Shown here piece by piece: positions 1 through 30,952 of a stretch of DNA of 64,000 nt. Source of the DNA: Escherichia coli (GTDB lineage Bacteria; Pseudomonadota; Gammaproteobacteria; Enterobacterales; Enterobacteriaceae); assembly GCF_013122565.1 (NCBI RefSeq), contig NZ_CP053258.1. The stretch is one strand, 5' to 3'. The notes under the pieces were generated by a model. The model was given only the letters and a program-made list of their open reading frames with translations, did no database searches and was not told where the DNA came from. The translations under genes were made by a program, and so were the position numbers. The number at the start of each line of letters is the position of its first letter. Positions within the stretch are counted from its first letter, which is position 1.

Positions 1-1109
1 GCGCGGGGATTGCCGCATTTCGTACTGGCAACGCTCCGGCTATTTTGCAGGTTTATGAAGTTGGCACCGCCACCATGATGGCATCCAAAGCCATTAAACC
101 GGTATATGACGTGTTTAAAGAGGCGGGGATTCAATTCGATGAGTCGCAGTTTGTGCCGACGGTTTCCGGTTACTACTCCGACAGCAAAACGGGCCACTTA
201 CTCTCCCAGCCGTTCAACAGCTCGACTCCCGTTCTCTATTACAACAAAGACGCCTTCAAGAAAGCGGGGTTAGACCCGGAACAGCCGCCGAAAACCTGGC
301 AGGATCTGGCGGACTATGCCGCAAAACTGAAAGCCTCCGGAATGAAGTGCGGCTACGCCAGCGGCTGGCAGGGCTGGATCCAACTGGAAAACTTTAGCGC
401 CTGGAACGGTCTGCCGTTTGCCAGCAAAAACAACGGCTTTGACGGCACGGATGCGGTGCTGGAGTTCAACAAGCCGGAGCAGGTGAAACACATCGCCATG
501 CTCGAAGAGATGAACAAGAAGGGCGATTTCAGCTACGTCGGGCGTAAGGATGAATCCACCGAGAAGTTCTATAACGGTGATTGCGCGATGACCACCGCCT
601 CTTCCGGTTCTCTCGCTAATATTCGTGAGTACGCCAAATTTAACTATGGCGTAGGCATGATGCCTTACGACGCCGATGCGAAAGATGCACCGCAAAACGC
701 CATTATCGGCGGGGCCAGCCTGTGGGTGATGCAGGGCAAAGATAAAGAAACGTATACCGGCGTGGCGAAGTTCCTCGACTTCCTCGCGAAGCCAGAAAAC
801 GCTGCCGAGTGGCATCAGAAAACCGGTTATCTGCCAATCACCAAAGCAGCGTATGACCTGACCCGTGAGCAGGGCTTTTATGAGAAAAACCCAGGGGCGG
901 ATACCGCGACGCGTCAGATGCTGAACAAGCCGCCGTTGCCGTTCACCAAAGGGCTGCGTCTGGGCAACATGCCGCAGACCCGCGTGATTGTGGATGAAGA
1001 GCTGGAGAGCGTGTGGACCGGTAAGAAGACACCACAGCAGGCACTGGATACCGCCGTTGAGCGTGGGAACCAGTTACTGCGCCGCTTTGAGCAGTCTACG
1101 AAGTCTTAA
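1..1109 (+). CDS. ugpB: sn-glycerol-3-phosphate ABC transporter periplasmic binding protein, 5'-truncated by the window edge
   Basis: ORF 45..1109 translation recognised as the UgpB C-terminal region; reading frame is open to the window start; followed by ugpAECQ. Confidence 0.9.
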
Positions 1110-1117
1110 TCAGTGTA

Positions 1118-1188
1118 ATGTCGGATGCGTTTCGCTTATCTGACCTGGCATCGCGTGTAGGCCGGATAAGCGAAGCGCATCCGGCACA
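1118..1188. repeat. REP/BIME-type palindromic repeats in the ugpB-ugpA intergenic region
   Basis: Inverted REP-like units seen directly, e.g. gccggataagcgaagcgcatccggca. Confidence 0.6.
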
Positions 1189-1206
1189 GTTCAGGAATTA
1201 ACCGTA

Positions 1207-2094
1207 ATGTCATCATCCCGTCCGGTGTTCCGCTCGCGCTGGCTGCCTTATCTGCTGGTCGCGCCGCAGCTCATCATCACCGTTATCTTTTTTATCTGGC
1301 CTGCGGGCGAAGCGTTGTGGTACTCGCTGCAAAGCGTCGATCCGTTTGGTTTCTCCAGCCAGTTTGTCGGCCTGGATAACTTCGTCGCGCTGTTTCATGA
1401 CAGCTACTATATCGACTCCTTCTGGACGACGATAAAATTCAGCACCTTTGTCACCGTCAGCGGTTTGCTGGTGTCACTGTTCTTCGCGGCGTTGGTGGAG
1501 TACATCGTGCGCGGCAGCCGTTTCTATCAAACCTTGATGCTGCTGCCGTATGCCGTGGCTCCCGCCGTTGCTGCCGTATTGTGGATCTTCCTGTTTAACC
1601 CCGGTCGCGGGCTGATCACCCATTTTCTCGCTGAGTTCGGCTACGACTGGAACCACGCGCAAAACAGCGGTCAGGCAATGTTTCTGGTGGTGTTTGCCTC
1701 GGTGTGGAAGCAAATCAGCTACAACTTTCTGTTCTTCTATGCCGCGCTGCACTCCATTCCCCGTTCGTTGATTGAAGCCGCAGCTATTGACGGCGCAGGG
1801 CCGATTCGCCGCTTCTTTAAGATTGCTCTGCCGCTTATCGCTCCGGTGAGTTTCTTCCTGCTGGTGGTGAACCTGGTGTACGCCTTCTTCGACACCTTCC
1901 CGGTGATCGACGCCGCCACGTCCGGCGGGCCGGTTCAGGCCACCACTACGCTGATTTATAAGATCTACCGCGAAGGCTTTACCGGACTGGATCTGGCTTC
2001 GTCTGCCGCGCAGTCGGTGGTGTTGATGTTCCTCGTCATCGTGCTGACGGTGGTGCAGTTCCGCTATGTTGAAAGCAAGGTGCGTTACCAATGA
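1207..2094 (+). CDS. ugpA: sn-glycerol-3-phosphate ABC transporter permease
   Basis: 295-aa polytopic membrane protein with the ABC permease EAA-type loop; position in the ugp operon. Confidence 0.92.
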
Positions 2095-2936
2095 TTGAGA
2101 ACCGTCCATGGCTGACAATATTCAGCCATACCATGCTGATCCTCGGGATCGCGGTGATCCTCTTCCCGCTGTACGTGGCGTTTGTCGCGGCGACGCTGGA
2201 TAAACAGGCCGTCTACGCCGCGCCGATGACGCTAATCCCCGGCACGCATCTGCTGGAAAACATCCACAACATCTGGGTAAACGGGGTAGGCACGAATAGT
2301 GCGCCGTTCTGGCGGATGTTACTTAACAGCTTCGTGATGGCGTTCAGCATCACGCTCGGCAAAATTACCGTCTCGATGCTCTCGGCATTTGCCATTGTCT
2401 GGTTTCGTTTTCCACTACGTAACCTCTTCTTCTGGATGATTTTTATCACCCTGATGTTGCCGGTTGAAGTACGTATCTTCCCGACGGTGGAAGTCATCGC
2501 CAACCTGAAGATGCTCGACAGCTACGCAGGTTTAACGCTGCCGCTGATGGCCTCGGCGACCGCGACGTTTCTTTTCCGCCAGTTCTTTATGACCCTACCG
2601 GATGAACTGGTGGAAGCCGCGCGGATCGACGGCGCGTCGCCAATGCGCTTCTTTTGCGACATCGTTTTTCCGTTGTCCAAAACTAATCTGGCGGCGTTGT
2701 TTGTGATCACCTTTATTTACGGCTGGAACCAGTATTTGTGGCCGTTGTTGATTATTACCGACGTGGATCTCGGCACCACCGTGGCAGGGATCAAAGGGAT
2801 GATCGCCACTGGCGAAGGCACCACAGAATGGAACTCGGTGATGGCTGCGATGTTGTTAACGCTGATCCCTCCGGTGGTGATTGTTTTAGTGATGCAGCGT
2901 GCCTTCGTGCGCGGCCTGGTCGATAGTGAGAAATAA
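2091..2936 (+). CDS. ugpE: sn-glycerol-3-phosphate ABC transporter permease
   Basis: 281-aa membrane permease; 4-nt overlap with ugpA. Confidence 0.92.
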
Positions 2937-2937
2937 G

Positions 2938-4008
2938 ATGGCAGGACTGAAATTACAGGCAGTAACCAAAAGCTGGGATGGCAAAACCCAGGTGATTAAA
3001 CCGCTGACCCTTGATGTGGCGGATGGCGAATTTATCGTGATGGTCGGGCCGTCTGGCTGCGGGAAATCGACGCTGCTGCGCATGGTTGCCGGGCTGGAGC
3101 GGGTGACCGAAGGCGATATCTGGATCGACCGCAAGCGTGTCACCGAAATGGAGCCGAAAGATCGCGGGATTGCGATGGTGTTCCAGAACTACGCGCTTTA
3201 TCCGCATATGAGTGTTGAAGAAAACATGGCGTGGGGGCTGAAAATTCGCGGCATGGGCAAGCAGCAAATTGCCGAACGGGTTAAAGAAGCGGCGCGTATT
3301 CTGGAGCTGGACGGCCTGCTCAAACGTCGCCCGCGCGAGCTATCTGGCGGTCAGCGCCAGCGTGTGGCGATGGGCCGCGCGATTGTGCGCGATCCGGCGG
3401 TGTTCTTGTTTGATGAGCCGCTCTCTAACCTCGATGCCAAGCTGCGCGTGCAGATGCGTCTTGAACTGCAACAGCTGCACCGTCGCCTGAAAACGACTTC
3501 ACTCTACGTTACTCATGATCAGGTTGAGGCGATGACGCTCGCCCAGCGAGTAATGGTGATGAACGGCGGCGTTGCCGAACAGATTGGCACGCCAGTGGAA
3601 GTTTACGAAAAGCCCGCCAGCCTGTTTGTAGCGAGTTTTATCGGCAGTCCGGCGATGAACCTGCTGACAGGCCGCGTGAATAATGAAGGCACGCATTTCG
3701 AACTGGACGGCGGTATTGTGCTGCCGCTAAACGGTGGCTACCGTCAGTATGCCGGGCGTAAAATGACTCTCGGCATTCGCCCGGAACATATAGCGCTAAG
3801 CTCGCAGGCAGAAGGTGGTGTGCCGCTGGTGATGGACACGCTGGAGATCCTCGGCGCTGATAACCTGGCGCACGGACGCTGGGGCGAACAGAAGCTGGTG
3901 GTACGGCTGGCGCATCAGGAGCGCCCGACGGCAGGCAGCACGCTGTGGCTGCATCTGGCGGAAAATCAGCTGCATCTTTTTGATGGTGAAACAGGACAAC
4001 GAGTATGA
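2938..4008 (+). CDS. ugpC: sn-glycerol-3-phosphate ABC transporter ATP-binding protein
   Basis: Walker [13 protein letters not shown] signature LSGGQRQR, Walker [11 protein letters not shown]. Start taken at MAGLKLQ (2938) rather than the longer ORF start 2899. Confidence 0.92.
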
Positions 4009-4748
4009 GTAACTGGCCTTATCCCCGCATCGTCGCTCATCGTGGCGGCGGTAAGCTGGCCCCCGAAAACACCCTGGCGGCAATCGACGTCGGGGCAAAA
4101 TACGGTCATAAGATGATCGAATTTGACGCGAAGTTATCGAAAGATGGCGAGATCTTTCTGCTCCATGATGACAACCTCGAACGCACCAGCAACGGCTGGG
4201 GCGTCGCGGGTGAACTGAACTGGCAGGATTTACTGCGCGTGGATGCGGGCAGTTGGTACAGCAAAGTGTTTAAAGGTGAGCCGCTGCCGTTGCTTTCGCA
4301 GGTGGCGGAACGCTGTCGTGAACACGGGATGATGGCGAATATCGAAATCAAACCCACCACTGGCACTGGACCATTAACGGGCAAAATGGTGGCGCTGGCG
4401 GCACGCGAACTGTGGGGCGGTATGACGCCGCCGCTGCTGTCATCGTTCGAAATTGATGCTTTAGAAGCCGCACAGCTGGCGGCACCGGAACTGCCGCGTG
4501 GTTTATTGCTTGATGAATGGCGCGACGACTGGCGAGAACTGACCGCGCGGCTGGGCTGCGTCTCTATTCATCTCAATCATAAGTTACTCGATAAAGCGCG
4601 AGTGATGCAGTTGAAAGACGCCGGATTACGGATTCTGGTTTATACCGTCAATAAACCCCAGCGCGCGGCAGAGTTGCTGCGCTGGGGCGTGGATTGCATC
4701 TGTACCGATGCGATTGACGTGATTGGTCCGAACTTTACGGCCCAATAG
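4005..4748 (+). CDS. ugpQ: glycerophosphodiester phosphodiesterase
   Basis: 247-aa GDPD-family protein (HRGG motif near the N-terminus); overlaps the ugpC stop. Confidence 0.9.
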
Positions 4749-5175
4749 TTTTCAACGGAATGTCAGGCTGCGGCGTGCTGGGCTGATTCAGCATGTCGCC
4801 GTTTCTCCTCTCCGGCAGCATATGCTGCTGATTCAACGAACTATCCGGATTACGGTTGCTGTTTAACATCCCGCCGTTGGTGTTGGGCAGCATTTGCTGC
4901 CGGGCGGGATTTCGCTCCCCCGGCTGTGACTGCAACACCCGCTGAGAATTATTGTTTATCTGGTTTTCTAAATGCTGCTGTTGCAACTGAGTTTGCGTTT
5001 TCAGTTGCTGATTCAGCATCCCTTTTTGCTGGATTTGCTGCGTTTGCATCTGGGTTTGCATCCGCTGCTGGCTGGGGATCTGATATCCCGGCTGGTTGGG
5101 GTTATTCAGAGTATTAATGGGCTGTGCAAAGCCGACAAACGGCAGGAGTGCCGTAAGAATCAGAAGTCGTTTCAT
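4735..5175 (-). CDS. yhhA: Gln-rich secreted protein YhhA (DUF2756-like)
   Basis: 146 aa with signal peptide and Q/N-rich low-complexity body; conserved position between ugpQ and ggt. Confidence 0.8.
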
Positions 5176-5294
5176 CGCGTATCCTCCTCTGAAGATATCC
5201 TTTAAGTTTACTCGCTTCCCGACAAAACGATGATTAATTCAGAGTTATATACCAGGCTTAGCTGGGGTTGCCCCTTAATCTCTGGAGAATAACG

Positions 5295-7037
5295 ATGATA
5301 AAACCGACGTTTTTACGCCGGGTGGCCATTGCTGCTCTGCTCTCAGGAAGTTGTTTTAGCGCCGCCGCCGCGCCTCCTCCGCCACCTGTTTCTTATGGCG
5401 TGGAGGAAGATGTCTTCCATCCGGTACGCGCGAAACAGGGGATGGTGGCGTCTGTCGATGCCACTGCCACCCAAGTGGGGGTAGATATTCTAAAGGAGGG
5501 CGGGAATGCCGTTGATGCTGCCGTGGCAGTGGGCTACGCGCTGGCGGTAACGCATCCGCAAGCAGGGAATCTGGGCGGTGGTGGTTTTATGCTGATCCGC
5601 TCGAAAAATGGCAACACCACGGCTATCGATTTCCGCGAAATGGCACCCGCCAAAGCGACCCGCGATATGTTCCTCGATGATCAGGGCAACCCGGACAGCA
5701 AAAAATCACTCACTTCGCATCTGGCTTCCGGCACGCCCGGTACGGTAGCAGGTTTCTCGCTGGCGTTGGATAAATACGGCACCATGCCGTTGAACAAAGT
5801 GGTGCAACCGGCGTTTAAACTGGCACGCGATGGTTTTATCGTTAACGACGCGCTGGCTGACGATCTCAAAACCTACGGCAGTGAAGTGCTGCCGAATCAC
5901 GAAAACAGCAAGGCTATCTTCTGGAAAGAGGGCGAACCGCTGAAAAAGGGCGACACGCTGGTGCAGGCGAACCTGGCAAAGAGCCTGGAGATGATTGCTG
6001 AAAACGGCCCGGACGAATTCTATAAAGGCACGATTGCGGAACAGATCGCCCAGGAGATGCAGAAAAACGGTGGCTTGATCACTAGAGAAGATTTAGCGGC
6101 CTATAAAGCGGTGGAACGTACACCGATTAGCGGCGAATATCGCGGGTATCAGGTTTACTCGATGCCACCGCCATCTTCCGGTGGGATTCATATCGTGCAG
6201 ATCCTCAATATCCTGGAAAACTTCGATATGAAGAAATACGGCTTTGGCAGTGCCGACGCGATGCAAATCATGGCAGAAGCCGAGAAATATGCCTACGCCG
6301 ACCGCTCGGAATATCTTGGCGACCCGGATTTTGTCAAAGTCCCGTGGCAGGCGTTGACCAATAAAGCCTATGCCAAATCTATTGCCGATCAAATAGATAT
6401 CAATAAAGCGAAGCCATCCAGCGAAATTCGTCCTGGCAAGCTTGCGCCTTATGAGAGTAATCAAACTACCCATTACTCAGTGGTGGATAAAGACGGTAAC
6501 GCGGTGGCGGTGACCTATACGCTGAACACCACCTTCGGTACGGGCATTGTCGCGGGCGAGAGCGGTATTCTGCTTAATAACCAGATGGATGATTTCTCCG
6601 CCAAACCGGGCGTACCGAACGTTTACGGGCTGGTGGGCGGTGATGCCAACGCCGTCGGGCCGAATAAACGCCCGCTGTCATCGATGTCACCAACCATTGT
6701 GGTGAAAGACGGTAAAACCTGGTTAGTGACTGGTAGCCCAGGCGGTAGCCGGATCATCACTACCGTGCTGCAAATGGTGGTGAATAGCATCGATTATGGT
6801 ATGAATGTCGCCGAAGCGACCAATGCACCGCGTTTCCACCATCAATGGTTGCCGGACGAGCTGCGTGTCGAAAAAGGGTTTAGCCCGGATACGCTCAAGC
6901 TGCTGGAAGCAAAAGGTCAGAAAGTGGCGCTGAAAGAGGCGATGGGCAGTACACAAAGCATTATGGTTGGGCCGGACGGTGAGTTGTACGGCGCATCCGA
7001 CCCGCGCTCGGTGGATGATTTAACGGCGGGTTATTAA
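5295..7037 (+). CDS. ggt: gamma-glutamyltranspeptidase
   Basis: 580-aa protein from MIKPTFLRR with signal peptide; GGT family; autoprocessing Thr in the QTTHYSVVD region. Confidence 0.93.
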   Translation: MIKPTFLRRVAIAALLSGSCFSAAAAPPPPPVSYGVEEDVFHPVRAKQGMVASVDATATQVGVDILKEGGNAVDAAVAVGYALAVTHPQAGNLGGGGFMLIRSKNGNTTAIDFREMAPAKATRDMFLDDQGNPDSKKSLTSHLASGTPGTVAGFSLALDKYGTMPLNKVVQPAFKLARDGFIVNDALADDLKTYGSEVLPNHENSKAIFWKEGEPLKKGDTLVQANLAKSLEMIAENGPDEFYKGTIAEQIAQEMQKNGGLITREDLAAYKAVERTPISGEYRGYQVYSMPPPSSGGIHIVQILNILENFDMKKYGFGSADAMQIMAEAEKYAYADRSEYLGDPDFVKVPWQALTNKAYAKSIADQIDINKAKPSSEIRPGKLAPYESNQTTHYSVVDKDGNAVAVTYTLNTTFGTGIVAGESGILLNNQMDDFSAKPGVPNVYGLVGGDANAVGPNKRPLSSMSPTIVVKDGKTWLVTGSPGGSRIITTVLQMVVNSIDYGMNVAEATNAPRFHHQWLPDELRVEKGFSPDTLKLLEAKGQKVALKEAMGSTQSIMVGPDGELYGASDPRSVDDLTAGY

Positions 7038-7041
7038 TATC

Positions 7042-7075
7042 TTAAGCCCTCTCCCGGTAGGTGAGGGCTTAAATG
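7042..7075 (+). terminator. hairpin terminator after ggt
   Basis: Inverted repeat aagccctctcccggtaggtgagggctt immediately after the ggt stop. Confidence 0.55.
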
Positions 7076-7097
7076 ACAAACTTAGATTGCAAATTAT

Positions 7098-7586
7098 CTA
7101 TTTCACCCGCGCCATATAATACGCATCGACATATTCACCATTACGAAAAGCGTAATTTTTGCCGGTGCCTTCTATGTGAAATCCCAATTTTTTATAGACT
7201 GTGATTGCCGGGGCGTTATCCGCAAACACCGTCAACTCAATACGATCTATCCGTAACCAGTTGTCGCACATTTCAATCAATTCGCGGATCAGGGCGCTGG
7301 CGATGCCGCGGTTGTGCCAGCGGGAGTCAACACAGATACCAAAAGTTGCAACATGACTGCGGCGTGGGCCTTGATAAGCCTCAATGAAAAGATGACCCAC
7401 TACGATGCCATCAATGCAGGCAACCAGTTGTTTAAAACCTTGGCGATCTTTCAATCTTTCTGGCCACCAGCCTTCCGAAGGATGAGGTAGTTGTAGCGTG
7501 TTGCAATACACCTCCGGCTGGGCGTGAATCTGCCTGATGGCCTCGTAATCGCGCGTTTCAGCATGGCGTATCACTATCTCACTCAT
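7098..7586 (-). CDS. yhhY: GNAT-family N-acetyltransferase YhhY
   Basis: 162-aa protein from MSEIVIRHAETRDYEAI; the ORF-track N-terminal extension (to 7664) was rejected. Confidence 0.85.
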   Translation of the reverse strand: MSEIVIRHAETRDYEAIRQIHAQPEVYCNTLQLPHPSEGWWPERLKDRQGFKQLVACIDGIVVGHLFIEAYQGPRRSHVATFGICVDSRWHNRGIASALIRELIEMCDNWLRIDRIELTVFADNAPAITVYKKLGFHIEGTGKNYAFRNGEYVDAYYMARVK

Positions 7587-7683
7587 TCCTTTGTCCTCTT
7601 TGGGGTAAATGTCCCTTTCAACATCATTGACTTTCAAATGCGAGTCAAATGCATTTTTTTGCAAAAAGTGTTGGACAAGTGCG

Positions 7684-7703
7684 AATGAGAATGATTATTA
7701 TTG
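7684..7703 (+). promoter_or_regulatory. Fur box in the ryhB promoter
   Basis: aatgagaatgattattattg resembles the Fur consensus GATAATGATAATCATTATC and lies immediately 5' of ryhB. Confidence 0.7.
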
Positions 7704-7707
7704 TCTC

Positions 7708-7797
7708 GCGATCAGGAAGACCCTCGCGGAGAACCTGAAAGCACGACATTGCTCACATTGCTTCCAGTATTACTTAGCCAGCCGGGTGCTGGCTTTT
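7708..7797 (+). ncRNA. ryhB: small regulatory RNA RyhB (iron-sparing, Fur-repressed, Hfq-dependent)
   Basis: Sequence gcgatcaggaagaccctcgcggagaacctgaaagcacgacattgctcacattgcttccagtattacttagccagccgggtgctggc followed by a T-run is recognised as RyhB; it lies in the yhhY-yhhX intergenic region with an intrinsic terminator hairpin at its 3' end. Confidence 0.9.
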
Positions 7798-7918
7798 TTT
7801 TTGATCTTTCGTTCTCAATTTATCCACGGGAGTGCTTGTGTTCGTTATGCGCACTCCAGTAGGAACCACGTCCGCTTTGCGCTAAGGTGTAAATAACCAC
7901 CTTAAAAAGGACGAAATC

Positions 7919-8956
7919 ATGGTCATCAACTGCGCCTTTATTGGCTTCGGCAAAAGCACCACCCGTTACCATCTGCCGTATGTACTTAACCGCAAGGATA
8001 GCTGGCATGTCGCGCATATTTTTCGCCGCCATGCAAAGCCGGAAGAACAAGCTCCCATTTACTCTCATATCCATTTCACCAGCGATCTCGACGAAGTGCT
8101 AAACGATCCCGATGTTAAGCTGGTTGTTGTCTGCACCCATGCGGACAGCCACTTCGAGTACGCGAAGCGCGCGCTGGAAGCCGGGAAAAATGTGCTGGTC
8201 GAAAAACCGTTCACCCCGACGCTTGCCCAGGCGAAAGAGCTGTTTGCTCTGGCGAAAAGTAAAGGGCTGACCGTCACGCCATATCAGAATCGTCGCTTTG
8301 ATTCCTGCTTCCTGACGGCGAAAAAAGCGATTGAAAGCGGCAAGCTGGGAGAGATTGTCGAAGTGGAAAGCCATTTTGACTATTACCGCCCGGTGGCAGA
8401 AACCAAACCTGGGCTGCCGCAGGATGGCGCGTTCTATGGCCTTGGTGTGCATACGATGGACCAGATTATTTCTCTGTTCGGTCGCCCGGATCACGTCGCT
8501 TATGACATCCGCAGCCTGCGTAATAAAGCCAATCCTGACGACACCTTTGAAGCGCAGCTGTTTTATGGCGACCTGAAAGCCATCGTCAAAACCAGCCATC
8601 TGGTGAAAATCGATTATCCGAAATTTATCGTTCACGGTAAGAAAGGTTCGTTTATTAAATACGGTATCGACCAGCAGGAAACCAGCCTGAAGGCTAATAT
8701 TATGCCGGGCGAACCGGGATTCGCAGCGGATGATTCGGTCGGTGTGCTGGAGTATGTCAATGACGAGGGTGTGACGGTCAGAGAAGAGATGAAGCCAGAG
8801 ATGGGCGATTACGGGCGCGTTTATGATGCGTTGTATCAAACCATCACCAACGGTGCGCCAAATTACGTCAAGGAATCTGAAGTTCTTACCAATCTGGAAA
8901 TCCTTGAACGCGGATTCGAGCAAGCCTCTCCCTCCACAGTGACTCTCGCGAAGTAA
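7919..8956 (+). CDS. yhhX: Gfo/Idh/MocA-family NAD(P)-dependent oxidoreductase
   Basis: 345 aa; N-terminal Rossmann motif AFIGFGKS; conserved position. Confidence 0.85.
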   Translation: MVINCAFIGFGKSTTRYHLPYVLNRKDSWHVAHIFRRHAKPEEQAPIYSHIHFTSDLDEVLNDPDVKLVVVCTHADSHFEYAKRALEAGKNVLVEKPFTPTLAQAKELFALAKSKGLTVTPYQNRRFDSCFLTAKKAIESGKLGEIVEVESHFDYYRPVAETKPGLPQDGAFYGLGVHTMDQIISLFGRPDHVAYDIRSLRNKANPDDTFEAQLFYGDLKAIVKTSHLVKIDYPKFIVHGKKGSFIKYGIDQQETSLKANIMPGEPGFAADDSVGVLEYVNDEGVTVREEMKPEMGDYGRVYDALYQTITNGAPNYVKESEVLTNLEILERGFEQASPSTVTLAK

Positions 8957-9078
8957 GTTTGATGGCCCCTCGAATAGTTCAATTTTTTTGAACAGAGGGG
9001 TCAATTTTCACCCTCTATCATCCCAGGCAGATCGGGTCCACACTAAGCCCATCGAAATCATTCAGGGGGCGAATACAA

Positions 9079-9774
9079 ATGATCTACTTACGCAAAGCAA
9101 ATGAACGTGGTCATGCAAATCATGGCTGGCTGGACTCCTGGCATACTTTCTCTTTTGCCAACTATTACGATCCGAACTTTATGGGCTTCTCCGCGCTGCG
9201 CGTGATTAACGACGACGTGATTGAAGCAGGACAGGGCTTCGGCACTCACCCGCATAAAGATATGGAGATTTTGACCTACGTGCTGGAAGGTACTGTTGAG
9301 CATCAGGACAGCATGGGCAATAAAGAGCAGGTTCCGGCGGGTGAGTTCCAGATTATGAGTGCGGGTACGGGTATTCGTCACTCAGAGTACAACCCAAGCA
9401 GCACCGAGCGTCTGCATCTGTATCAGATCTGGATCATGCCTGAAGAAAACGGTATTACGCCGCGTTATGAACAGCGTCGCTTCGATGCCGTACAGGGCAA
9501 ACAGCTGGTGCTCTCGCCGGATGCGCGAGATGGTTCATTGAAAGTGCATCAGGATATGGAACTGTATCGTTGGGCGTTGCTGAAAGATGAGCAGTCGGTG
9601 CATCAGATTGCCGCTGAACGCCGCGTCTGGATCCAGGTGGTGAAAGGCAATGTCACCATTAACGGCGTGAAAGCCTCGACCAGCGATGGTCTGGCAATCT
9701 GGGATGAGCAGGCGATCTCCATCCATGCGGATAGCGACAGCGAAGTGTTACTGTTCGATCTGCCGCCGGTTTAA
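9079..9774 (+). CDS. yhhW: pirin-like quercetin 2,3-dioxygenase
   Basis: 231 aa; cupin metal-binding His motifs (HPHKDME...); conserved position upstream of gntR. Confidence 0.88.
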   Translation: MIYLRKANERGHANHGWLDSWHTFSFANYYDPNFMGFSALRVINDDVIEAGQGFGTHPHKDMEILTYVLEGTVEHQDSMGNKEQVPAGEFQIMSAGTGIRHSEYNPSSTERLHLYQIWIMPEENGITPRYEQRRFDAVQGKQLVLSPDARDGSLKVHQDMELYRWALLKDEQSVHQIAAERRVWIQVVKGNVTINGVKASTSDGLAIWDEQAISIHADSDSEVLLFDLPPV

Positions 9775-9997
9775 AACTCAACGGCATCTTTGAAGCCTGC
9801 CTTTTTGCAGGCTTCCTCGCTCGCTCCGGTCGCGTGCTGATGTACGCTTCCGGGGTTTTGCCGCGTCGTTAGCACAATGCGATGCAATTGATTTAGTGTA
9901 TATCTAATAATTGTAAACAAGCACTGTTTTCCCCGGGAAGGTTCTGATGCGTCCGTGTTAAACTAAGAGAATCTATCTCTTTTGTACCTTCAGGACG

Positions 9998-10993
9998 ATG
10001 AAAAAGAAAAGACCCGTACTTCAGGATGTGGCTGACCGTGTAGGCGTGACCAAAATGACGGTCAGCCGTTTTTTACGCAACCCGGAGCAGGTTTCCGTCG
10101 CTCTACGCGGCAAGATTGCCGCCGCTCTTGATGAACTGGGCTATATTCCCAATCGTGCGCCCGATATCCTCTCTAACGCCACCAGCCGGGCGATTGGCGT
10201 CCTGTTACCTTCTCTCACCAACCAGGTTTTCGCGGAAGTATTACGCGGAATCGAAAGCGTCACCGACGCGCACGGTTATCAGACCATGCTGGCGCACTAC
10301 GGTTATAAACCGGAAATGGAGCAAGAACGCCTCGAATCCATGCTCTCATGGAATATCGACGGCCTGATCCTCACCGAACGTACCCACACGCCGCGCACCT
10401 TAAAGATGATTGAAGTGGCGGGTATTCCCGTGGTGGAACTGATGGACAGCAAGTCGCCATGCCTCGATATTGCCGTCGGTTTTGATAACTTTGAAGCAGC
10501 ACGCCAGATGACCACTGCCATTATTGCTCGCGGGCATCGCCACATTGCCTATCTCGGCGCACGTCTCGACGAACGTACTATCATCAAACAGAAGGGGTAC
10601 GAACAGGCGATGCTGGATGCAGGTCTGGTGCCGTATAGCGTGATGGTTGAGCAATCTTCTTCTTATTCTTCCGGTATTGAACTGATTCGCCAGGCGCGGC
10701 GGGAATATCCGCAGCTGGATGGCGTGTTCTGTACCAACGATGACCTGGCGGTCGGCGCGGCGTTTGAATGTCAACGTCTGGGGTTGAAAGTTCCTGACGA
10801 TATGGCGATTGCCGGTTTCCACGGTCATGACATTGGTCAGGTGATGGAGCCACGACTGGCGAGCGTGCTTACGCCGCGTGAGCGGATGGGCAGTATTGGC
10901 GCTGAACGCCTGCTGGCGCGTATTCGTGGCGAATCTGTGACACCGAAAATGTTAGATTTAGGTTTCACCTTGTCACCGGGCGGATCTATTTAA
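9998..10993 (+). CDS. gntR: gluconate repressor, LacI family
   Basis: 331 aa; N-terminal helix-turn-helix VTKMTVSRFLRN plus periplasmic-binding-like fold. Confidence 0.92.
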   Translation: MKKKRPVLQDVADRVGVTKMTVSRFLRNPEQVSVALRGKIAAALDELGYIPNRAPDILSNATSRAIGVLLPSLTNQVFAEVLRGIESVTDAHGYQTMLAHYGYKPEMEQERLESMLSWNIDGLILTERTHTPRTLKMIEVAGIPVVELMDSKSPCLDIAVGFDNFEAARQMTTAIIARGHRHIAYLGARLDERTIIKQKGYEQAMLDAGLVPYSVMVEQSSSYSSGIELIRQARREYPQLDGVFCTNDDLAVGAAFECQRLGLKVPDDMAIAGFHGHDIGQVMEPRLASVLTPRERMGSIGAERLLARIRGESVTPKMLDLGFTLSPGGSI

Positions 10994-11072
10994 GCCCACA
11001 AATTTGAAGTAGCTCACACTTATACACTTAAGGCACGGATGGATATTGCTTCTGATATTGTCCGGCCGGACA

Positions 11073-11101
11073 ATGTTACCGATAACAGTTACCAGTAACA
11101 T
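11073..11101 (+). promoter_or_regulatory. GntR operator upstream of gntKU
   Basis: Near-palindrome atgttaccgataacagttaccagtaacat, matching the GntR operator type (ATGTTAC...GTAACAT). Confidence 0.75.
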
Positions 11102-11131
11102 TTTTAATTCTTGTATTGTGGGGGCACCACT

Positions 11132-11659
11132 TTGAGCACGACTAACCATGATCACCACATTTACGTCTTGATGGGCGTATCGGGCAGCGGCAAATCTGCG
11201 GTCGCCAGTGAAGTGGCGCATCAACTTCATGCCGCGTTTCTTGATGGCGATTTCCTCCATCCACGGCGCAATATCGAAAAAATGGCGTCTGGCGAACCGC
11301 TGAATGACGACGATCGCAAACCGTGGTTGCAGGCGCTGAACGACGCCGCGTTTGCTATGCAGCGCACTAATAAAGTGTCGCTGATCGTCTGTTCTGCATT
11401 GAAAAAACACTATCGCGACTTGCTGCGTGAAGGTAATCCGAATCTCTCTTTCATCTACCTGAAAGGCGATTTTGATGTGATTGAAAGCCGCCTGAAAGCG
11501 CGCAAAGGCCATTTCTTTAAAACCCAAATGTTGGTGACGCAGTTTGAAACGCTGCAGGAGCCGGGTGCGGACGAAACCGATGTACTGGTGGTAGATATCG
11601 ATCAACCGCTGGAAGGTGTTGTGGCAAGCACCATTGAGGTTATTAAAAAAGGCAAATAA
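11132..11659 (+). CDS. gntK: gluconokinase (thermoresistant)
   Basis: P-loop GVSGSGKS; product begins STTNHDHHIY, which implies a TTG start at 11132 inside the longer ORF 11111..11659. Confidence 0.88.
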   Translation: MSTTNHDHHIYVLMGVSGSGKSAVASEVAHQLHAAFLDGDFLHPRRNIEKMASGEPLNDDDRKPWLQALNDAAFAMQRTNKVSLIVCSALKKHYRDLLREGNPNLSFIYLKGDFDVIESRLKARKGHFFKTQMLVTQFETLQEPGADETDVLVVDIDQPLEGVVASTIEVIKKGK

Positions 11660-11662
11660 GTA

Positions 11663-13003
11663 GTGACTACATTAACGCTTGTTTTAACAGCAGTAGGGTC
11701 TGTTTTACTGCTGCTGTTTTTAGTCATGAAGGCGCGTATGCACGCTTTCCTGGCTTTGATGGTGGTGTCCATGGGGGCTGGCCTTTTTTCCGGTATGCCG
11801 CTCGATAAAATCGCAGCGACGATGGAAAAAGGGATGGGAGGCACCCTCGGCTTCCTGGCGGTGGTTGTCGCCCTGGGAGCTATGTTTGGCAAGATCTTAC
11901 ATGAAACCGGCGCAGTCGATCAGATTGCCGTCAAAATGCTCAAATCCTTCGGTCACAGCCGCGCGCATTATGCCATCGGCCTTGCGGGGCTGGTCTGTGC
12001 GCTACCGCTGTTCTTTGAAGTGGCGATTGTTCTGCTGATTAGCGTTGCTTTCTCAATGGCGCGCCACACCGGTACGAACCTGGTGAAGCTGGTAATCCCA
12101 TTATTTGCAGGCGTGGCGGCAGCGGCTGCGTTCCTGGTGCCTGGACCAGCGCCAATGCTGCTGGCATCGCAGATGAACGCCGATTTTGGCTGGATGATCC
12201 TGATTGGCCTGTGTGCGGCAATTCCGGGAATGATTATTGCTGGGCCGCTGTGGGGTAACTTTATCAGCCGTTACGTTGAGCTGCATATTCCTGACGACAT
12301 CAGCGAACCGCATCTCGGCGAAGGCAAAATGCCATCTTTCGGATTCAGCCTGTCGCTGATCCTGTTGCCGCTGGTGCTGGTGGGGCTGAAAACCATTGCC
12401 GCGCGTTTTGTGCCAGAAGGCTCTACCGCTTACGAATGGTTCGAGTTTATTGGTCATCCGTTTACCGCGATTCTGGTTGCTTGTCTGGTGGCGATTTACG
12501 GTCTGGCAATGCGTCAGGGCATGCCAAAAGACAAAGTGATGGAGATTTGCGGTCACGCGCTGCAACCGGCGGGGATCATTCTGCTGGTGATTGGTGCAGG
12601 CGGCGTGTTCAAACAGGTGCTGGTTGACTCTGGCGTAGGTCCGGCACTCGGCGAAGCGTTAACCGGCATGGGCCTGCCGATTGCCATCACCTGCTTCGTG
12701 CTGGCAGCGGCGGTGCGCATCATTCAGGGGTCTGCCACCGTTGCCTGCTTAACGGCGGTAGGACTGGTAATGCCGGTCATTGAACAACTGAACTACTCCG
12801 GTGCGCAAATGGCGGCGCTGTCGATTTGTATCGCCGGTGGTTCGATTGTTGTCAGCCACGTTAACGACGCTGGTTTCTGGTTGTTCGGTAAATTTACCGG
12901 CGCGACCGAAGCCGAAACGCTGAAAACCTGGACCATGATGGAAACCATCCTCGGCACTGTCGGTGCCATCGTTGGGATGATTGCGTTCCAGCTGTTGAGT
13001 TAA
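11663..13003 (+). CDS. gntU: low-affinity gluconate:H+ symporter (GntP family)
   Basis: 446-aa polytopic GntP-family transporter; apparent GTG start at 11663, 4 nt after the gntK stop. Confidence 0.9.
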   Translation: MTTLTLVLTAVGSVLLLLFLVMKARMHAFLALMVVSMGAGLFSGMPLDKIAATMEKGMGGTLGFLAVVVALGAMFGKILHETGAVDQIAVKMLKSFGHSRAHYAIGLAGLVCALPLFFEVAIVLLISVAFSMARHTGTNLVKLVIPLFAGVAAAAAFLVPGPAPMLLASQMNADFGWMILIGLCAAIPGMIIAGPLWGNFISRYVELHIPDDISEPHLGEGKMPSFGFSLSLILLPLVLVGLKTIAARFVPEGSTAYEWFEFIGHPFTAILVACLVAIYGLAMRQGMPKDKVMEICGHALQPAGIILLVIGAGGVFKQVLVDSGVGPALGEALTGMGLPIAITCFVLAAAVRIIQGSATVACLTAVGLVMPVIEQLNYSGAQMAALSICIAGGSIVVSHVNDAGFWLFGKFTGATEAETLKTWTMMETILGTVGAIVGMIAFQLLS

Positions 13004-13015
13004 TTACTGCGACAA

Positions 13016-13050
13016 ATTACTGCGAGCTTGCTCGCAGTAATTCATTTCTC
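13016..13050 (+). terminator. perfect palindromic hairpin after gntU
   Basis: aattactgcgagc-tt-gctcgcagtaatt followed by a T-rich tract; half-site also directly repeated at 13002-13012. Confidence 0.6.
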
Positions 13051-13142
13051 TTTTCTCCTCTCTTCATCTTTTTGATCTCTCTCGCAAATTTACCTGCTAA
13101 TAATCCGTTCTAATCACTGCCTAAAGATCGCAGGAGATAAAG

Positions 13143-15239
13143 ATGGAAAAGCACGGAGCTGAATTGCTTTTACAGCGGATGTTAGGCAATACCACCGCTA
13201 CTTTCAGGGAAGGTCAATGGGAAGCCATGGACGCGGTGGTGAACCGACGGCGAAAACTGCTGGTTGTCCAACGCACTGGCTGGGGGAAAAGCGCCGTGTA
13301 CTTCATCTCCAGTAAAATCTTCCGCGATCGCGGCGCTGGCCCGACAATTATCATCTCTCCTTTGCTTGCCCTGATGCGTAACCAGGTTGCCGCCGCTGAA
13401 CGGTTAGGTATTACGGCTGAAACGTTGAATTCTACAAACAGGGAAGAATGGCAGCGCATTAGCGATAAGTTGCTGCAAGGTGCGGTCGATTGCTTGCTGG
13501 TTTCCCCGGAACGTTTGGCAAACCAGGACTTTATCGAAACGGTTTTATATCCTATAGCCGATCGTATTGGTTTGCTTGTGGTCGACGAGGCGCACTGCAT
13601 CTCTGATTGGGGCCACGATTTTCGCCCGGATTACCGACGTATATTAGATATTTTGCGCCAACTGCCTGCGAATACCCCTGTTCTGGGTACAACCGCGACA
13701 GCGAATAACCGTGTCGTTGAGGATATCCGTCAGCAATTGGGTGACATTGTGATTCAGCGTGGAACGCTGGCTCGCGAAAGTTTGGCGCTTGATGCCTTAG
13801 TCTTAGGTGAACAGTCATCCCGTCTGGCATGGTTAGCAACGGTTATCCCTCAGTTTTCCAAATCGGGAATTGTTTATACCCTGACTACTCGCGATGCCGA
13901 ACTTGTCGCCGAGTGGTTAAGGACAAATGGTATCAGTGCATTTGCTTACTACAGCGGCGTGACTTGTGAAGGCGCGGAAGATTCTAATACTGCCAGGGAA
14001 TATCTGGAGCAGGCGCTGCTGGCAAATAAAATCAAAGTGCTGGTCGCGACGACGGCATTAGGTATGGGGTTTGATAAACCTGATTTAGGTTTCGTCATTC
14101 ATTATCAAATGCCGGGGTCTATTGTCGGTTACTACCAACAGGTAGGGCGTGCCGGGCGTGCTATAGATTCCGCTGTTGGCATATTGCTTTGTGGTGGTGA
14201 AGACCGCGCTATTCATAAATTCTTCCGTGAAAGCGCCTTTCCTGCGGAGGCGCAAATTCATGAAATACTCAACGTACTTAGCGAGAATGACGGTCTTACC
14301 CTACGAGGCATTGAACAACGGACGAATCTCCGTTATGGGCAAATAGAAAAAGCACTGAAATTATTGGTAGCTGAAAATCCATCGCCTGTGGTGTATACCG
14401 AGAAATTATGGCGCAGAACTATCGTCAGTTTCTCTCCTGACCATGAACGAATTAACCATTTGATGAATCAGAGAAAAAGTGAGCTGGCAGACGTTGAAAG
14501 CTATGTCACGACCAAGGAGTGCAAAATGCAATTTCTGCGCCGCGCACTCGATGAGCCAAGTGCCGAACGTTGTGGTAAATGTAGCAGTTGTCTTCAGCAT
14601 CCGTTGTTGTCGCCCGATATTGATAGCGGCTTACTCCATGCGGCAAATTTATTTATTAAACACGCTGACCTGCCATTAAATCTCAATAAACAGGTAGCAT
14701 CTGGGGCTTTTACGCAATACGGATTTAAAGGGAACTTGCCTGCGGGTTTACAAGGATCTACGGGGCGAGTCCTTTCTCGTTGGGGAGATTCCGGGTGGGG
14801 AAAGCAGGTAGCACAGGAGAAAAAAACGGGGCGATTCAGTGATGAGCTGGTGGAGGCATGTGCGGAAATGGTTCGCCAACGCTGGAATCCGCATCCTGAA
14901 CCAACCTGGGTATGCTGCGTTCCTTCATTAAGGCACCTCGACCTGGTTCCTAATTTTGCCCGGCGACTGGCGGCGAAACTTGGCTTACCTTTTATTGATG
15001 CCATTGAAAAAGTCGTGGACAATCCACCGCAGAAAATGCAGCAAAACCGTTTTCACCAGTGTCAAAATCTCGACGGGGCGTTTGTGATTACCCCTCCTTT
15101 GATGCCAGGTCCGGCGTTGCTGGTTGACGATATCGTGGATTCTGCATGGACGCTGACAGTTCTGACAGCACTGTTACGCCAGGCAGGTTGCCCGACGGTT
15201 TATCCTCTTGCCCTTGCTTCTACCTCGGTAAAAAATTGA
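13143..15239 (+). CDS. RecQ-family superfamily-2 DNA helicase fused to a C-terminal ComF/GntX-like phosphoribosyltransferase-like domain
   Basis: 698 aa. Walker A QRTGWGKS (aa 43-50); DEAH box VVDEAHCISDWGHDFRPDY (nt 13584-13595); motif III TATA; motif VI QQVGRAGR; Cys cluster ERCGKCSSC; C-terminal LLVDDIVDSAWTLTVLTALL resembles the PRPP-binding loop of PRTases (compare GntX VIVDDVVTTGSTVAEIAQLL in this window). Confidence 0.75.
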   Translation: MEKHGAELLLQRMLGNTTATFREGQWEAMDAVVNRRRKLLVVQRTGWGKSAVYFISSKIFRDRGAGPTIIISPLLALMRNQVAAAERLGITAETLNSTNREEWQRISDKLLQGAVDCLLVSPERLANQDFIETVLYPIADRIGLLVVDEAHCISDWGHDFRPDYRRILDILRQLPANTPVLGTTATANNRVVEDIRQQLGDIVIQRGTLARESLALDALVLGEQSSRLAWLATVIPQFSKSGIVYTLTTRDAELVAEWLRTNGISAFAYYSGVTCEGAEDSNTAREYLEQALLANKIKVLVATTALGMGFDKPDLGFVIHYQMPGSIVGYYQQVGRAGRAIDSAVGILLCGGEDRAIHKFFRESAFPAEAQIHEILNVLSENDGLTLRGIEQRTNLRYGQIEKALKLLVAENPSPVVYTEKLWRRTIVSFSPDHERINHLMNQRKSELADVESYVTTKECKMQFLRRALDEPSAERCGKCSSCLQHPLLSPDIDSGLLHAANLFIKHADLPLNLNKQVASGAFTQYGFKGNLPAGLQGSTGRVLSRWGDSGWGKQVAQEKKTGRFSDELVEACAEMVRQRWNPHPEPTWVCCVPSLRHLDLVPNFARRLAAKLGLPFIDAIEKVVDNPPQKMQQNRFHQCQNLDGAFVITPPLMPGPALLVDDIVDSAWTLTVLTALLRQAGCPTVYPLALASTSVKN

Positions 15240-16441
15240 TGAATCTTTCAGCCAATGCACAAGCAACTCTCCTGCTAACCAGCGATTTTTCTCGCGCGGC
15301 GGCGAGTGAGTATAACCCTCTTAGTAATAGTGAATGGGGGAAGTTTGCATTATGGCTGAAGCACCAACGTATCAGTCCCGCCGATCTTCTGGTGCCGCAA
15401 CCGCAAGAGAAACTTACAGGCTGGAGCGATCCGCGTATTTCTCAGGAGCGTATTCTTGGCTTGCTGGCGCGTGGTCATAGTCTGGCGTTGGCGGTAGATA
15501 AGTGGCAACGCGCCGGTTTATGGATCTTAACCCGCGGAGATGCCGATTATCCCGTTCGCTTGAAAAACCGATTGCGAACGGATGCACCTCCCGTTTTATT
15601 TGGCTGTGGGAATAAAGCATTACTGCAAGCGGAAGGTATGGCGATTGTTGGCTCGCGAGATGCTCCGACTGACGATTTGCGCTATACCCAACAACTGGCC
15701 GCGAAACTGGCCCAACAGGGGATTTGCGTTATCTCTGGTGGTGCGCGAGGTATTGATGAATGTGCAATGGCGTCGGCACTGGAGGCCGGGGGAACTGCCG
15801 TTGGCGTATTAGCTGATAGCTTGTTAAAAACGAGCACGTTAGTGAAATGGCGTGAAGGGCTTATAGCAGGCAACCTGGTGTTGATTTCGCCGTTTTACCC
15901 AGAGGTACGTTTCACTGTCGGCAATGCGATGGCGCGGAATAAATATATTTATTGCCTTGCTGAAAGCGCAATGGTTGTACGTGCGGGAATGTCCGGTGGA
16001 ACGATAACCGGGGCGATGGAAGCATTAAAACATCAGTGGCTGCCTGTGCAGGTTAAACCAAATCAGGATATGCAATCAGCCAATTCACGATTAGTAGAAA
16101 ATGGGGCGTCATGGAGTACTGAACAGGCTGAGAATGTGACGTTCAGACTGCCAGACGTTACTGGGCTGATTTATGACAAAGCACTCCGTAACGCTCAACC
16201 AGAACTGTTTTCGCTGCATGAAGATGACGCAAATTACGCAGTAATGCCCGCGCATACGCCTGTCGATTTTTATCAACTCTTTGTGGCGGAACTGGCGATC
16301 CTTGCAAAGGAATCGATAAGTATTGAAAGGCTGGCGTCTTGTACTGGTTTAACCATCGAACAAATTCGTGTGTGGCTGAACCGCGCAGAAGAAGAGGGAA
16401 GGGTTATTCGATTGGGCGAAGGTCATTATCAGTTCAGGTAA
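15239..16441 (+). CDS. DprA/Smf-like (SLOG Rossmann-fold) DNA-processing protein with a C-terminal winged-helix-like tail
   Basis: 400 aa from MNLSANAQ; ATG overlaps the helicase TGA (TGATG). DprA core motifs MAIVGSRDAP...GICVISGGARGIDECAMASALEAGG (nt ~15737-15757); C-terminal SIERLASCTGLTIEQIRVWLNRAEEEGRVIRL looks like a winged helix. Confidence 0.75.
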   Translation: MNLSANAQATLLLTSDFSRAAASEYNPLSNSEWGKFALWLKHQRISPADLLVPQPQEKLTGWSDPRISQERILGLLARGHSLALAVDKWQRAGLWILTRGDADYPVRLKNRLRTDAPPVLFGCGNKALLQAEGMAIVGSRDAPTDDLRYTQQLAAKLAQQGICVISGGARGIDECAMASALEAGGTAVGVLADSLLKTSTLVKWREGLIAGNLVLISPFYPEVRFTVGNAMARNKYIYCLAESAMVVRAGMSGGTITGAMEALKHQWLPVQVKPNQDMQSANSRLVENGASWSTEQAENVTFRLPDVTGLIYDKALRNAQPELFSLHEDDANYAVMPAHTPVDFYQLFVAELAILAKESISIERLASCTGLTIEQIRVWLNRAEEEGRVIRLGEGHYQFR

Positions 16442-16444
16442 TAA

Positions 16445-16481
16445 AACAGGTGCCGCGTCTGGTTGTGTGCAGCACCTGTTT
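16445..16481. terminator. bidirectional hairpin between the convergent DprA-like gene and yhgN
   Basis: Inverted repeat aacaggtgc...gcacctgtt lying between the two convergent stop codons. Confidence 0.55.
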
Positions 16482-16486
16482 GAACC

Positions 16487-28132: not shown

Positions 28133-29650
28133 ATGGAAAGAATAATGCAAAACAGAAAATGGATTTTGACCTCGCTGGTAATGACTTTTTTCGGCATCCC
28201 CATACTGACGCAATTTTTGGCAGCGGTTGTTGCTATGCTGGGGGGCGGGCTTGCCGCTATTCTTGAGGTTTGCAATTTACTCTTTACGCCAGCAATTTAT
28301 CTTCTACTCAACGTCTTTATGCTGACTCTGGGGGCGATAATAATATTTTTCTCTGGTCGCGTGTGGGCGGGCGATAGTGCACCAGAAAAAAAAGAAATAG
28401 CCGTCTGGCGACAATGTCTTTTTTTAGTACCTGCTTTATTCACCCTGGTTGGCTGGATAATCACGCTACATCTGGCAGATTATCAATTTCGCCAGATGGG
28501 AGACGGTTGGTTGGCAAACCTTATGCTTCCCTGGTTGGGCGTTTTTTTAGTCTCATTAGTGGGTGGTGAGTACTGGTGGATAGTCATTATACCCGTTGGC
28601 GCGCATATCAGTTTTTCGCTGGGGTACGGTTGGCCGACCAGACATCTTTTAACGGGCACGTCCGGGTTACGTTGCCGTAATTCCCTCTTGTTTATCCTTC
28701 TCATGCTTGGTTTTGTCGCCGGTTACCAGGCTTATTTATATAAACAGCTTAATCCCGGCGTCGGTGTGCGTGAAAATATTGATACCTGGGCCTGGCGACC
28801 CGATAAACTCAATAATCAACTGACACCACTGCGTGGTAAACCGCAAATTCAGTTCACGCAAAACTGGCCGCGACTCGATGGTGCTACGGCGGCGTACCCA
28901 ATTTATGCCTCTGCATTTTATGCTTTAAGCGTTATACCGGAAGATTTTCACGCCAGGAAATATCTGGAGAACTCTCGTACCCCCGATGCGTATAACAGGA
29001 TTGTTAAAGGTGATGCCGATATTATTTTTGTGGCGCAGCCCTCCGGTGGGCAGAAAAAACGCGCTGAGGAATCGGGCGTCACTTTGCTGTACACGCCTTT
29101 TGCCCGTGAAGCGTTTGTTTTCATCGTCAATGCAGATAACCCGGTTAATTCCCTGACCGAACAACAAGTGCGTGACATCTTCAGTGGCGCAATTACCAAC
29201 TGGCGCACGGTTGGCGGTAACGATCAGGAGATCCAGACCTGGCAACGCCCGGAAGACTCAGGTAGCCAGACGGTGATGCAGGCGCAGGTCATGAAAAATG
29301 TACGTATGATCTCGCCGCAGGAGACCGAAGTGGCTGAAATGATGGGAGGGATGATTAAAGTTGTTGCCGAATACCGTAATACAAACAACTCAATAGGCTA
29401 CACCTTCCGCTATTACGCAACGCAAATGAATACCGATAAGAATATCAAATTGTTAGCGATTAACGGTATTGCACCGACTGCGGAAAACATCCGTAACGGC
29501 AAATATCCCTATATCGTCGATGCCTTTATGGTAACGCGGGAAAATATGACGTCAGAAACGCAAAAACTGGTGGAATGGTTTTTAACGCCGCAGGGGCAAA
29601 GCCTGGTGGAAGATGTGGGTTATGTGCCGATGTATCCAACAATGAAATAA
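28133..29650 (+). CDS. membrane-embedded protein with C-terminal PstS-like periplasmic binding domain
   Basis: 505 aa. N-terminal ~200 aa contains about 5-6 hydrophobic helices; C-terminal ~290 aa resembles PstS-family binding proteins (GATAAYPIYASAFY, WQRPEDSGSQTVMQ, VGYVPMYP). Start could be 28145. Confidence 0.55.
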   Translation: MERIMQNRKWILTSLVMTFFGIPILTQFLAAVVAMLGGGLAAILEVCNLLFTPAIYLLLNVFMLTLGAIIIFFSGRVWAGDSAPEKKEIAVWRQCLFLVPALFTLVGWIITLHLADYQFRQMGDGWLANLMLPWLGVFLVSLVGGEYWWIVIIPVGAHISFSLGYGWPTRHLLTGTSGLRCRNSLLFILLMLGFVAGYQAYLYKQLNPGVGVRENIDTWAWRPDKLNNQLTPLRGKPQIQFTQNWPRLDGATAAYPIYASAFYALSVIPEDFHARKYLENSRTPDAYNRIVKGDADIIFVAQPSGGQKKRAEESGVTLLYTPFAREAFVFIVNADNPVNSLTEQQVRDIFSGAITNWRTVGGNDQEIQTWQRPEDSGSQTVMQAQVMKNVRMISPQETEVAEMMGGMIKVVAEYRNTNNSIGYTFRYYATQMNTDKNIKLLAINGIAPTAENIRNGKYPYIVDAFMVTRENMTSETQKLVEWFLTPQGQSLVEDVGYVPMYPTMK

Positions 29651-29675
29651 CCCTTGAGAGAAGGGAATCAGGGCG

Positions 29676-30677: not shown

Positions 30678-30952
30678 AAATATCAATAAGTAAACTTAGT
30701 GAATTTAAAAAGGTTTCTTTATTATTTCTGGCCTACTCATTATTTATTACTGCTGGGTGTGTCAGTCATCAGAATGTTACTGAAAGTATAAAAGAAAAAC
30801 AGAGTTATAATATTACAAGGATACAGGGGAAACCCGTATTACAAATTCCCGAAAAGGAAGCAACGTGGTTGACCGTGGCGAGGGCCACTACGTTATATCC
30901 ATTGTACTCTTCGGCATATCACATGGTTATAGTTGAACCCAGTGGACACTGA
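30674..30952 (+). pseudogene. truncated third PstS-like paralog with lipoprotein signal peptide
   Basis: 92 aa; lipobox ITAGC, then only the first ~45 aa of the binding domain (IQGKPVLQIPE...ATTLYPLYSSAYH) before a stop; ATGA overlap with the upstream gene; very AT-rich DNA follows. Confidence 0.5.

Follow-up and report, generated by a model that had tools for sequence, protein, structure and literature searches.

Hcp proteins that carry a C-terminal toxin extension (Hcp-ETs), including an HNH-DNase type found in STEC, are T6SS-delivered antibacterial effectors that are neutralised by downstream immunity proteins (review PMC6730261). One paper treats YhhZ as an orphan 'evolved Hcp' whose HNH domain is degenerate (PMC2907695), and another places it as a His-Me finger group among the polymorphic toxins of the Hcp1 family (PMC5714182). 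According to the annotation of E. coli K-12 MG1655, yhhZ (b3442) is part of an islet that separates yhhY from ggt, in the order yhhY-yhhZ-yrhA-yrhD-yrhB-ggt, where yrhA (b3443) is a pseudogene split by an IS1E copy (insA6/insB6) and is followed by yrhD (b4612) and yrhB (b3446); in this strain the stop codons of yhhY and ggt are separated by 3,454 bp. The N-terminal region of YhhZ matched both the Pfam T6SS_HCP (E = 1.6e-11) and the NCBIfam TssD/Hcp1 (E = 3.8e-34) models, with only a sub-threshold, weak HNH match at the C-terminus, while YrhB matched Pfam Imm35 (E = 4e-23) and the reconstructed YrhA matched the NCBIfam YrhA family. With these matches, it is fair to call the K-12 genes a putative effector/immunity pair, as had been done in an initial annotation of the locus studied here, and the K-12 islet has the composition of an Hcp-ET or polymorphic toxin-immunity islet. 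That annotation had also given the K-12 gene order as yhhZ, yrhA, IS1 and yrhB, an order that the MG1655 annotation bears out except that yrhD had been left out. Once IS1 is removed, the islet has a GC content of 33.6%, as compared with 51-55% for ggt, yhhY and yhhX, a low value of the kind usual in acquired DNA. IS1E was added to the islet later: numerous genomes have the islet but no IS1, and a 9-bp duplication (GACATTAAA) flanks IS1E only.

We examined the corresponding junction in a 64-kb stretch of E. coli DNA (64,000 nucleotides; hereafter, the window), in which ggt and yhhY are convergent, tail to tail, with their stop codons exactly 60 bp apart (Table 1). Reading the sequence together with the list of open reading frames, ggt begins with an ATG (MIKPTFLR) and ends with a TAA at 7035-7037, and yhhY, whose translation is MSEIVIRH...YYMARVK, ends with a TAG at 7098-7100 that appears as cta on the + strand. 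The PRK10140 match covers residues 27-188 of the mechanically called yhhY reading frame, which sets the true start at 7586. The left flank (ugpQ and yhhA) is as in K-12. On the right, a scan for terminator and promoter patterns marked a terminator-like hairpin with a T-run at 7776-7794, within ryhB, and a promoter-like site at 7672-7701. A search of the ggt-yhhY spacer for known RNA families returned none, the nearest being RyhB, 640 bp away.

Table 1. Features of the ggt-yhhY junction and of the window-only segments (positions in the window).
Feature	Position	Strand	Description
ggt (gamma-glutamyltransferase)	5295..7037	+	NCBIfam equivalog NF007187, 1308.8 bits; 580 codons + TAA
Spacer, convergent intergenic, unoccupied insertion site	7038..7097	.	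60 bp between ggt and yhhY stops
G+C-rich hairpin	7042..7072	.	10-bp stem, 11-nt loop; common to the 3' ends of ggt and yhhY
yhhY (GNAT N-acetyltransferase)	7098..7586	-	NCBIfam equivalog NF007527 (PRK10140), 320.5 bits; 162 codons + TAG
Mosaic patch in yhhY	7140..7491	-	350-bp, rare divergent allele; from mismatch map, sliding identity and allele comparison
ryhB small RNA	7737..7801	+	Rfam RF00057, 83.1 bits, E = 6.7e-16; between yhhY and yhhX as in K-12
yhhX oxidoreductase	7919..8956	+	Right conserved flank; NCBIfam NF007574, 779 bits
RecQ-family helicase and DprA-like protein	13004-16486		698 aa and 431 aa; absent from K-12; between gntU and yhgN
Two PstS-family substrate-binding proteins and five ORFs	28368-34985		6.6 kb; absent from K-12; between glgP and glpD
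TacA-like antitoxin upstream of GNAT acetyltransferase	42938-43826		92 aa (Pfam TacA1, E = 2.5e-19) and 161 aa; 0.9 kb; absent from K-12; between rtcA and malT

Blastn alignment to K-12 traces the ugpB-ggt region at ~96.5% nucleotide identity and ends exactly at the ggt stop, with the last homologous base at 7037; the alignment picks up again at 7095, 3 bp ahead of the yhhY stop. The Ggt protein is 99% identical to that of K-12 at ~96% identity in DNA, so the divergence looks natural. Neither blastn nor tblastn found a match to the K-12 islet or its IS1 anywhere in the 64-kb window, which contains no Hcp-ET or polymorphic toxin-immunity ORFs of this type. The two central observations of the initial annotation, that ggt lies directly beside yhhY and that the K-12 segment between them is missing, are thus borne out. 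As argued below, 'absent' should not be read here as 'lost', since sequence comparison identifies the empty form as the ancestral one.

The 60-bp spacer contains one hairpin, whose stem is a perfect inverted repeat (TTAAGCCCTC at 7042-7051 and GAGGGCTTAA at 7063-7072). It lies 5 bp past the ggt stop and 25 bp past the yhhY stop, and its predicted folding energy is -22.1 and -22.3 kcal/mol on the two strands (z = -3.7 and -4.5, respectively). This is the G+C-rich stem-loop expected of a canonical intrinsic terminator, yet no T-run follows the stem on either strand (the adjoining sequence is AATGACAAAC on the + strand and GATATTAATAA on the - strand) and the terminator pattern scan made no call at 7042-7072, so that the hairpin is not a canonical one. 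The initial annotation had spoken of some 60 bp containing the ggt terminator; the length and the stable stem-loop hold, and the designation as the terminator of ggt is unproven given the missing T-run and scan call. Most likely, it would serve the two convergent transcripts as a common 3' stem-loop, either ending or stabilising them. In the K-12-type allele of the hairpin a T-run (ATTTTGT) is present, and comes from the end of the islet.

A hairpin occurs at the same place in every aligned Escherichia spacer, with stem and loop sequences that vary: the E. whittamii stem is GCCCTCTC/GAGAGGGC, and one divergent lineage has CCCCTCT/AGAGGGG. A consensus fold of nine spacers gave a weak common structure (-6 kcal/mol, one compensatory pair), a result of the stems lying out of register between species in the alignment. 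Because other Escherichia species have the same hairpin, we also rejected the idea that a deletion had fused the individual terminators of ggt and yhhY into a hybrid. The hairpin of E. albertii (GCCCTCTCGCCTACCGGGAGAGGGC; locus L007, 6454-6521) resembles a flipped form of the E. coli sequence GCCCTCTCCCGGTAGGTGAGGGC, which suggests a stem-loop inversion rather than drift by point mutation.

The state of this junction outside E. coli was surveyed by scanning one genome per GTDB species with the window YhhY, which yielded 80 loci in which ggt, yhhX and yhhA were located by tblastn. In most of the loci sampled from Enterobacteriaceae and Erwiniaceae the two genes are neighbours. A convergent yhhY-ggt pair with a gap of ~40-130 bp was found in E. 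albertii, E. whittamii, Escherichia sp. E1V33 and two divergent 'E. coli' representatives, as well as in Citrobacter, Enterobacter, Lelliottia, Klebsiella, Raoultella, Pluralibacter and the majority of Erwinia and Pantoea loci; for the five representatives from Escherichia, this gap measures 59-70 bp. The homology extends to the spacer itself, since that of the window aligns over its full length with those of O25b:H4-ST131 (hereafter ST131), E. coli E69, Escherichia sp. E1V33, E. albertii and E. whittamii; the five representatives follow the order TAATATCTTAA, hairpin, TTAAATGACAAACTTAGATTGCAAATT, yhhY stop. The right half of the spacer (TAAATGACAAACTTAGATTGCAAATT) is present in the window and in other Escherichia species and is missing from K-12. 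The window junction therefore has every property of an unoccupied, ancestral allele, namely a short spacer, homology of that spacer to outgroup spacers and no islet genes nearby, and the spacer homology together with the adjacency of the two genes in the outgroups indicates that the empty form predates the genus and that the K-12 islet is a derived insertion.

The point of insertion could be read from E. coli strain 104 (locus L085, 2519-2577), which has an empty site with a recombinant allele composed of a K-12-type hairpin, the ancestral right half and the rare yhhY patch described below. In this strain the ancestral right half (TAAATGACAAACTTATATTGCAAATTCTTTAT) comes straight after the K-12-type hairpin (GGCCCTCTTCGTGGGAAGAGGGCT), and K-12 itself has the 3' end of yrhB (ATTTTGTCAGGGCAAGCC) after that hairpin; the strain 104 junction places the K-12 insertion immediately after GAGGGCT. 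On the yhhY side of the K-12 islet, a different sequence with a hairpin of its own (CCCTTTTTC...GAAAAAGGG) stands in place of the ancestral right half. Judged from these alignments, the islet sits immediately 3' of the ggt hairpin and has displaced about 30 bp.

We consider it highly probable that the window retains the ancestral, never-interrupted ggt/yhhY pair and that the K-12-type islet is a derived insertion next to the hairpin. The original arrangement would have been that of the window, with ggt and yhhY tail to tail, a single 3' hairpin in common and 60 bp of spacer. Foreign AT-rich DNA would have entered just downstream of the hairpin in some E. coli lineages, displacing the roughly 30 bp between it and the yhhY stop. 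In K-12 the inserted DNA would have comprised the orphan 'evolved Hcp' toxin gene yhhZ, with its Hcp domain and HNH-like nuclease domain, followed by the immunity-family genes yrhA, possibly yrhD, and yrhB, with IS1E striking yrhA later. The window allele would have no deletion scar because nothing was deleted from it.

The ends of the islet give a clue to how it entered. A repeat search of the K-12 islet and its flanks found only the inverted repeats of IS1E and its 9-bp duplication (families I1 and D15), with no target-site duplication and no terminal direct or inverted repeats at the islet boundaries; the islet as a whole is thus unlike a transposon or IS-borne segment. With neither a transposition nor a site-specific integration signature, recombination (illegitimate or via the flanks) is the likelier route of entry, and we infer that the islet arrived by recombination rather than by transposition.

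The distribution of the two forms was determined in 5,426 complete RefSeq E. coli genomes. A probe of 96 bp spanning the empty junction, for which a full-length match was demanded, was found in 985 genomes (18%), always with ggt on one side and yhhY on the other; 836 of these matches fall at 95-99% identity, including ST131, and 89 genomes fall at 80-90%, the band that includes strain 104. E. coli 042 and SMS-3-5 are also empty. The K-12 islet with IS1 removed in silico was present at 80% coverage or more in 3,758 of the 5,426 (69%), most of them without IS1, and a partial match to the islet was found in 4,094. ggt and yhhY lie within about 1.1 kb of each other in 1,242 genomes, and subtracting the 985 empty ones leaves roughly 250 for a form with yrhB alone at the site, as seen in strain 25-9519. 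Among individual strains, O157:H7 has a DUF4225 gene at the site (locus L089, 5716-7570) and HS-02 has a truncated yhhY. The yhhY|ggt site is therefore truly polymorphic, in agreement with the initial description of the window as carrying the empty form of a variable site, and the state of the window is the second most common.

Occupied sites were also observed in other genera. In Pantoea sp. BAV 3049 (locus L052, 7490-8390) the yhhY|ggt interval holds an ORF for a Tse2-like ADP-ribosyltransferase toxin and a small ORF; in Franconibacter pulveris (locus L028, 7490-10348), a metNIQ-like ABC transporter; and in the Erwinia persicina group (locus L060, 7493-11063), a short-chain dehydrogenase, a PhyH dioxygenase and an aspartyl-protease-like gene.

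A broader and rather unlikely reading is that the yhhY|ggt spacer is a recurrent, recombinase-independent landing site that has been loaded repeatedly across lineages and genera, often with toxin/immunity cargo, and that turnover by flanking recombination would explain the divergent patch in yhhY. The cargo that brings this reading to mind consists of Hcp-HNH with Imm35/YrhA in most E. coli, DUF4225 in O157:H7 and the Tse2-like toxin in a Pantoea.

The most unusual feature near the junction is not the junction itself but this patch, a segment inside yhhY that differs by ~23% of nucleotides from ST131 and is ~79% identical to K-12, E. albertii, E. whittamii and E1V33, four sequences that are mutually 91-96% identical over the same region. 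Its identity to Citrobacter and Enterobacter is 70-74%, and it results in 26/162 amino-acid differences. Only 156 of the 5,426 genomes carry the patch at 95% identity or more (XJ34, 14EC033, 042, strain 104 and others), and its donor lineage appears, from these identities, to lie outside all sampled Escherichia. The roughly 60 best matches listed all have an empty site, and an IS element lies near it in two of these genomes, so that the link between the rare yhhY allele and the empty form is shown only in part. The patch begins ~40 bp inside yhhY, and both the last 40 bp of the gene and the spacer are of the ordinary ST131/outgroup type (the spacer has 2 mismatches to ST131 in 60 bp); this distance rules out a patch abutting the junction, and we claim no mechanistic link to the insertion site.

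Mosaicism extends beyond yhhY. When compared in 250-bp bins, the ugpB-ggt region is 93-98% identical to every genome examined, and no complete E. coli exceeds about 96-97% identity to it overall, as opposed to 98-100% identity to K-12 at 8500-12000. Recombination has therefore acted nearby. Across the window as a whole, the best complete match among the 5,426 genomes reaches only 97.4% (positions 1-12000) or 98.1% (44000-64000), with all genomes within a 95-99% band for the last 20 kb, implying that the source lineage, possibly a deep-branching or cryptic clade, is not represented among complete RefSeq genomes and that some mosaicism is to be expected everywhere.

Such a background leaves room for a secondary replacement, in which the lineage had once carried the islet and regained the empty allele by homologous recombination of the whole ggt-yhhY tract. 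The tract is indeed a mosaic: the patch at 7140-7491 is ~23% divergent from other Escherichia, the identity profile of ugpB-ggt (93-98% to all genomes) departs from that of 8500-12000, and strains such as 104 show shuffled alleles of both the hairpin and the right half-spacer. Yet the whole window lies about 2% from every complete E. coli, so that a mosaic structure is not peculiar to this site; the spacer and the adjoining end of yhhY are of the ordinary type; and simple retention is more parsimonious given the adjacency of the two genes in the other Escherichia sampled. We regard this scenario as distinctly improbable, and even if it had taken place, the allele now present would be of the ancestral type.

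That the islet was instead excised or deleted in place would fit its presence in most E. coli (69%), but is very hard to reconcile with the structure of the junction. The right half of the spacer, about 30 bp, no longer exists in K-12, and deleting the K-12 islet could therefore neither restore it nor yield the window spacer; the same spacer type is found in other Escherichia species. No islet remnant exists in the spacer or in the rest of the window, the islet ends offer no direct or inverted repeats for precise excision, and the junction is neither built from joined islet and flank sequence nor accompanied by residual islet DNA or repeats. We looked for the scar or target-site duplication that the initial annotation had proposed as a check, and found none at the junction, as expected if the empty form is ancestral. 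Comparison of the spacer with both ends of the K-12 islet did return a shared AATGACA heptamer near the yhhY-proximal end and a 12-nt pair (TGATAAAATAGC/TGACAAAATAGC), each of which we take to be a chance match of short sequence in AT-rich DNA. In situ loss thus has a very low probability. An assembly or sampling artefact, with a collapsed or mis-joined contig hiding an islet, can be practically dismissed, because the same junction architecture occurs in 985 complete, independently assembled genomes and in other species, and the sequence across the junction is unambiguous.

The window does carry DNA that K-12 does not have at the three other sites to which the initial annotation had pointed, and alignment to K-12 returned all three as window-only segments (Table 1). 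The RecQ-family gene of the first segment also adjoins gntU in XJ34, where it is frameshifted, and in SMS-3-5. At the second, K-12 has only the yzgL remnant between glgP and glpD, and the five ORFs of 154-262 aa that accompany the PstS-family genes in the window had no NCBIfam match. The third segment looks like a TacAT-type toxin-antitoxin pair.

Taken by itself the empty junction matters little and carries no mechanism of its own; a site already known to be polymorphic is seen here in its ordinary ancestral form, which close to a thousand complete genomes have in their annotation. For annotation, it tells us that this strain has neither the yhhZ 'evolved Hcp' toxin gene at the junction nor the yrhA/yrhB immunity-family genes. 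Cells with the empty form would accordingly be devoid of YrhA/YrhB-type immunity, and if neighbouring cells deliver YhhZ-type toxins, a strain with an empty site is predicted to be non-immune. It is K-12, and not the window genome, that represents the derived state, which calls for caution when K-12 serves as the reference for calling 'deletions'.

The locus can be compared with four kinds of known systems. Rho-independent bidirectional terminators between convergent genes share with the window hairpin a stable G+C-rich stem-loop placed between two convergent genes, and differ from it in the T-run, which the window hairpin does not have on either strand. The K-12 islet, with its orphan 'evolved Hcp' (Hcp-ET-type) toxin and immunity-family genes, occupies the very site that is empty in the window, from the ggt hairpin to the yhhY stop; the window has no such islet, and K-12 would represent the derived, AT-rich state. 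Other occupied forms of the yhhY|ggt site likewise have an insertion between the same two convergent stops, with a different cargo in each. In the empty junctions of ST131, 042, SMS-3-5, XJ34 and about 980 other genomes, gene order, orientation, the 60-bp spacer and the hairpin are those of the window, with identities mostly of 95.8-99% over the 96-bp probe (XJ34 and 14EC033 reach 99.2% over 651 bp); most of them have the common yhhY allele, whereas the window and 156 genomes share the divergent internal patch.
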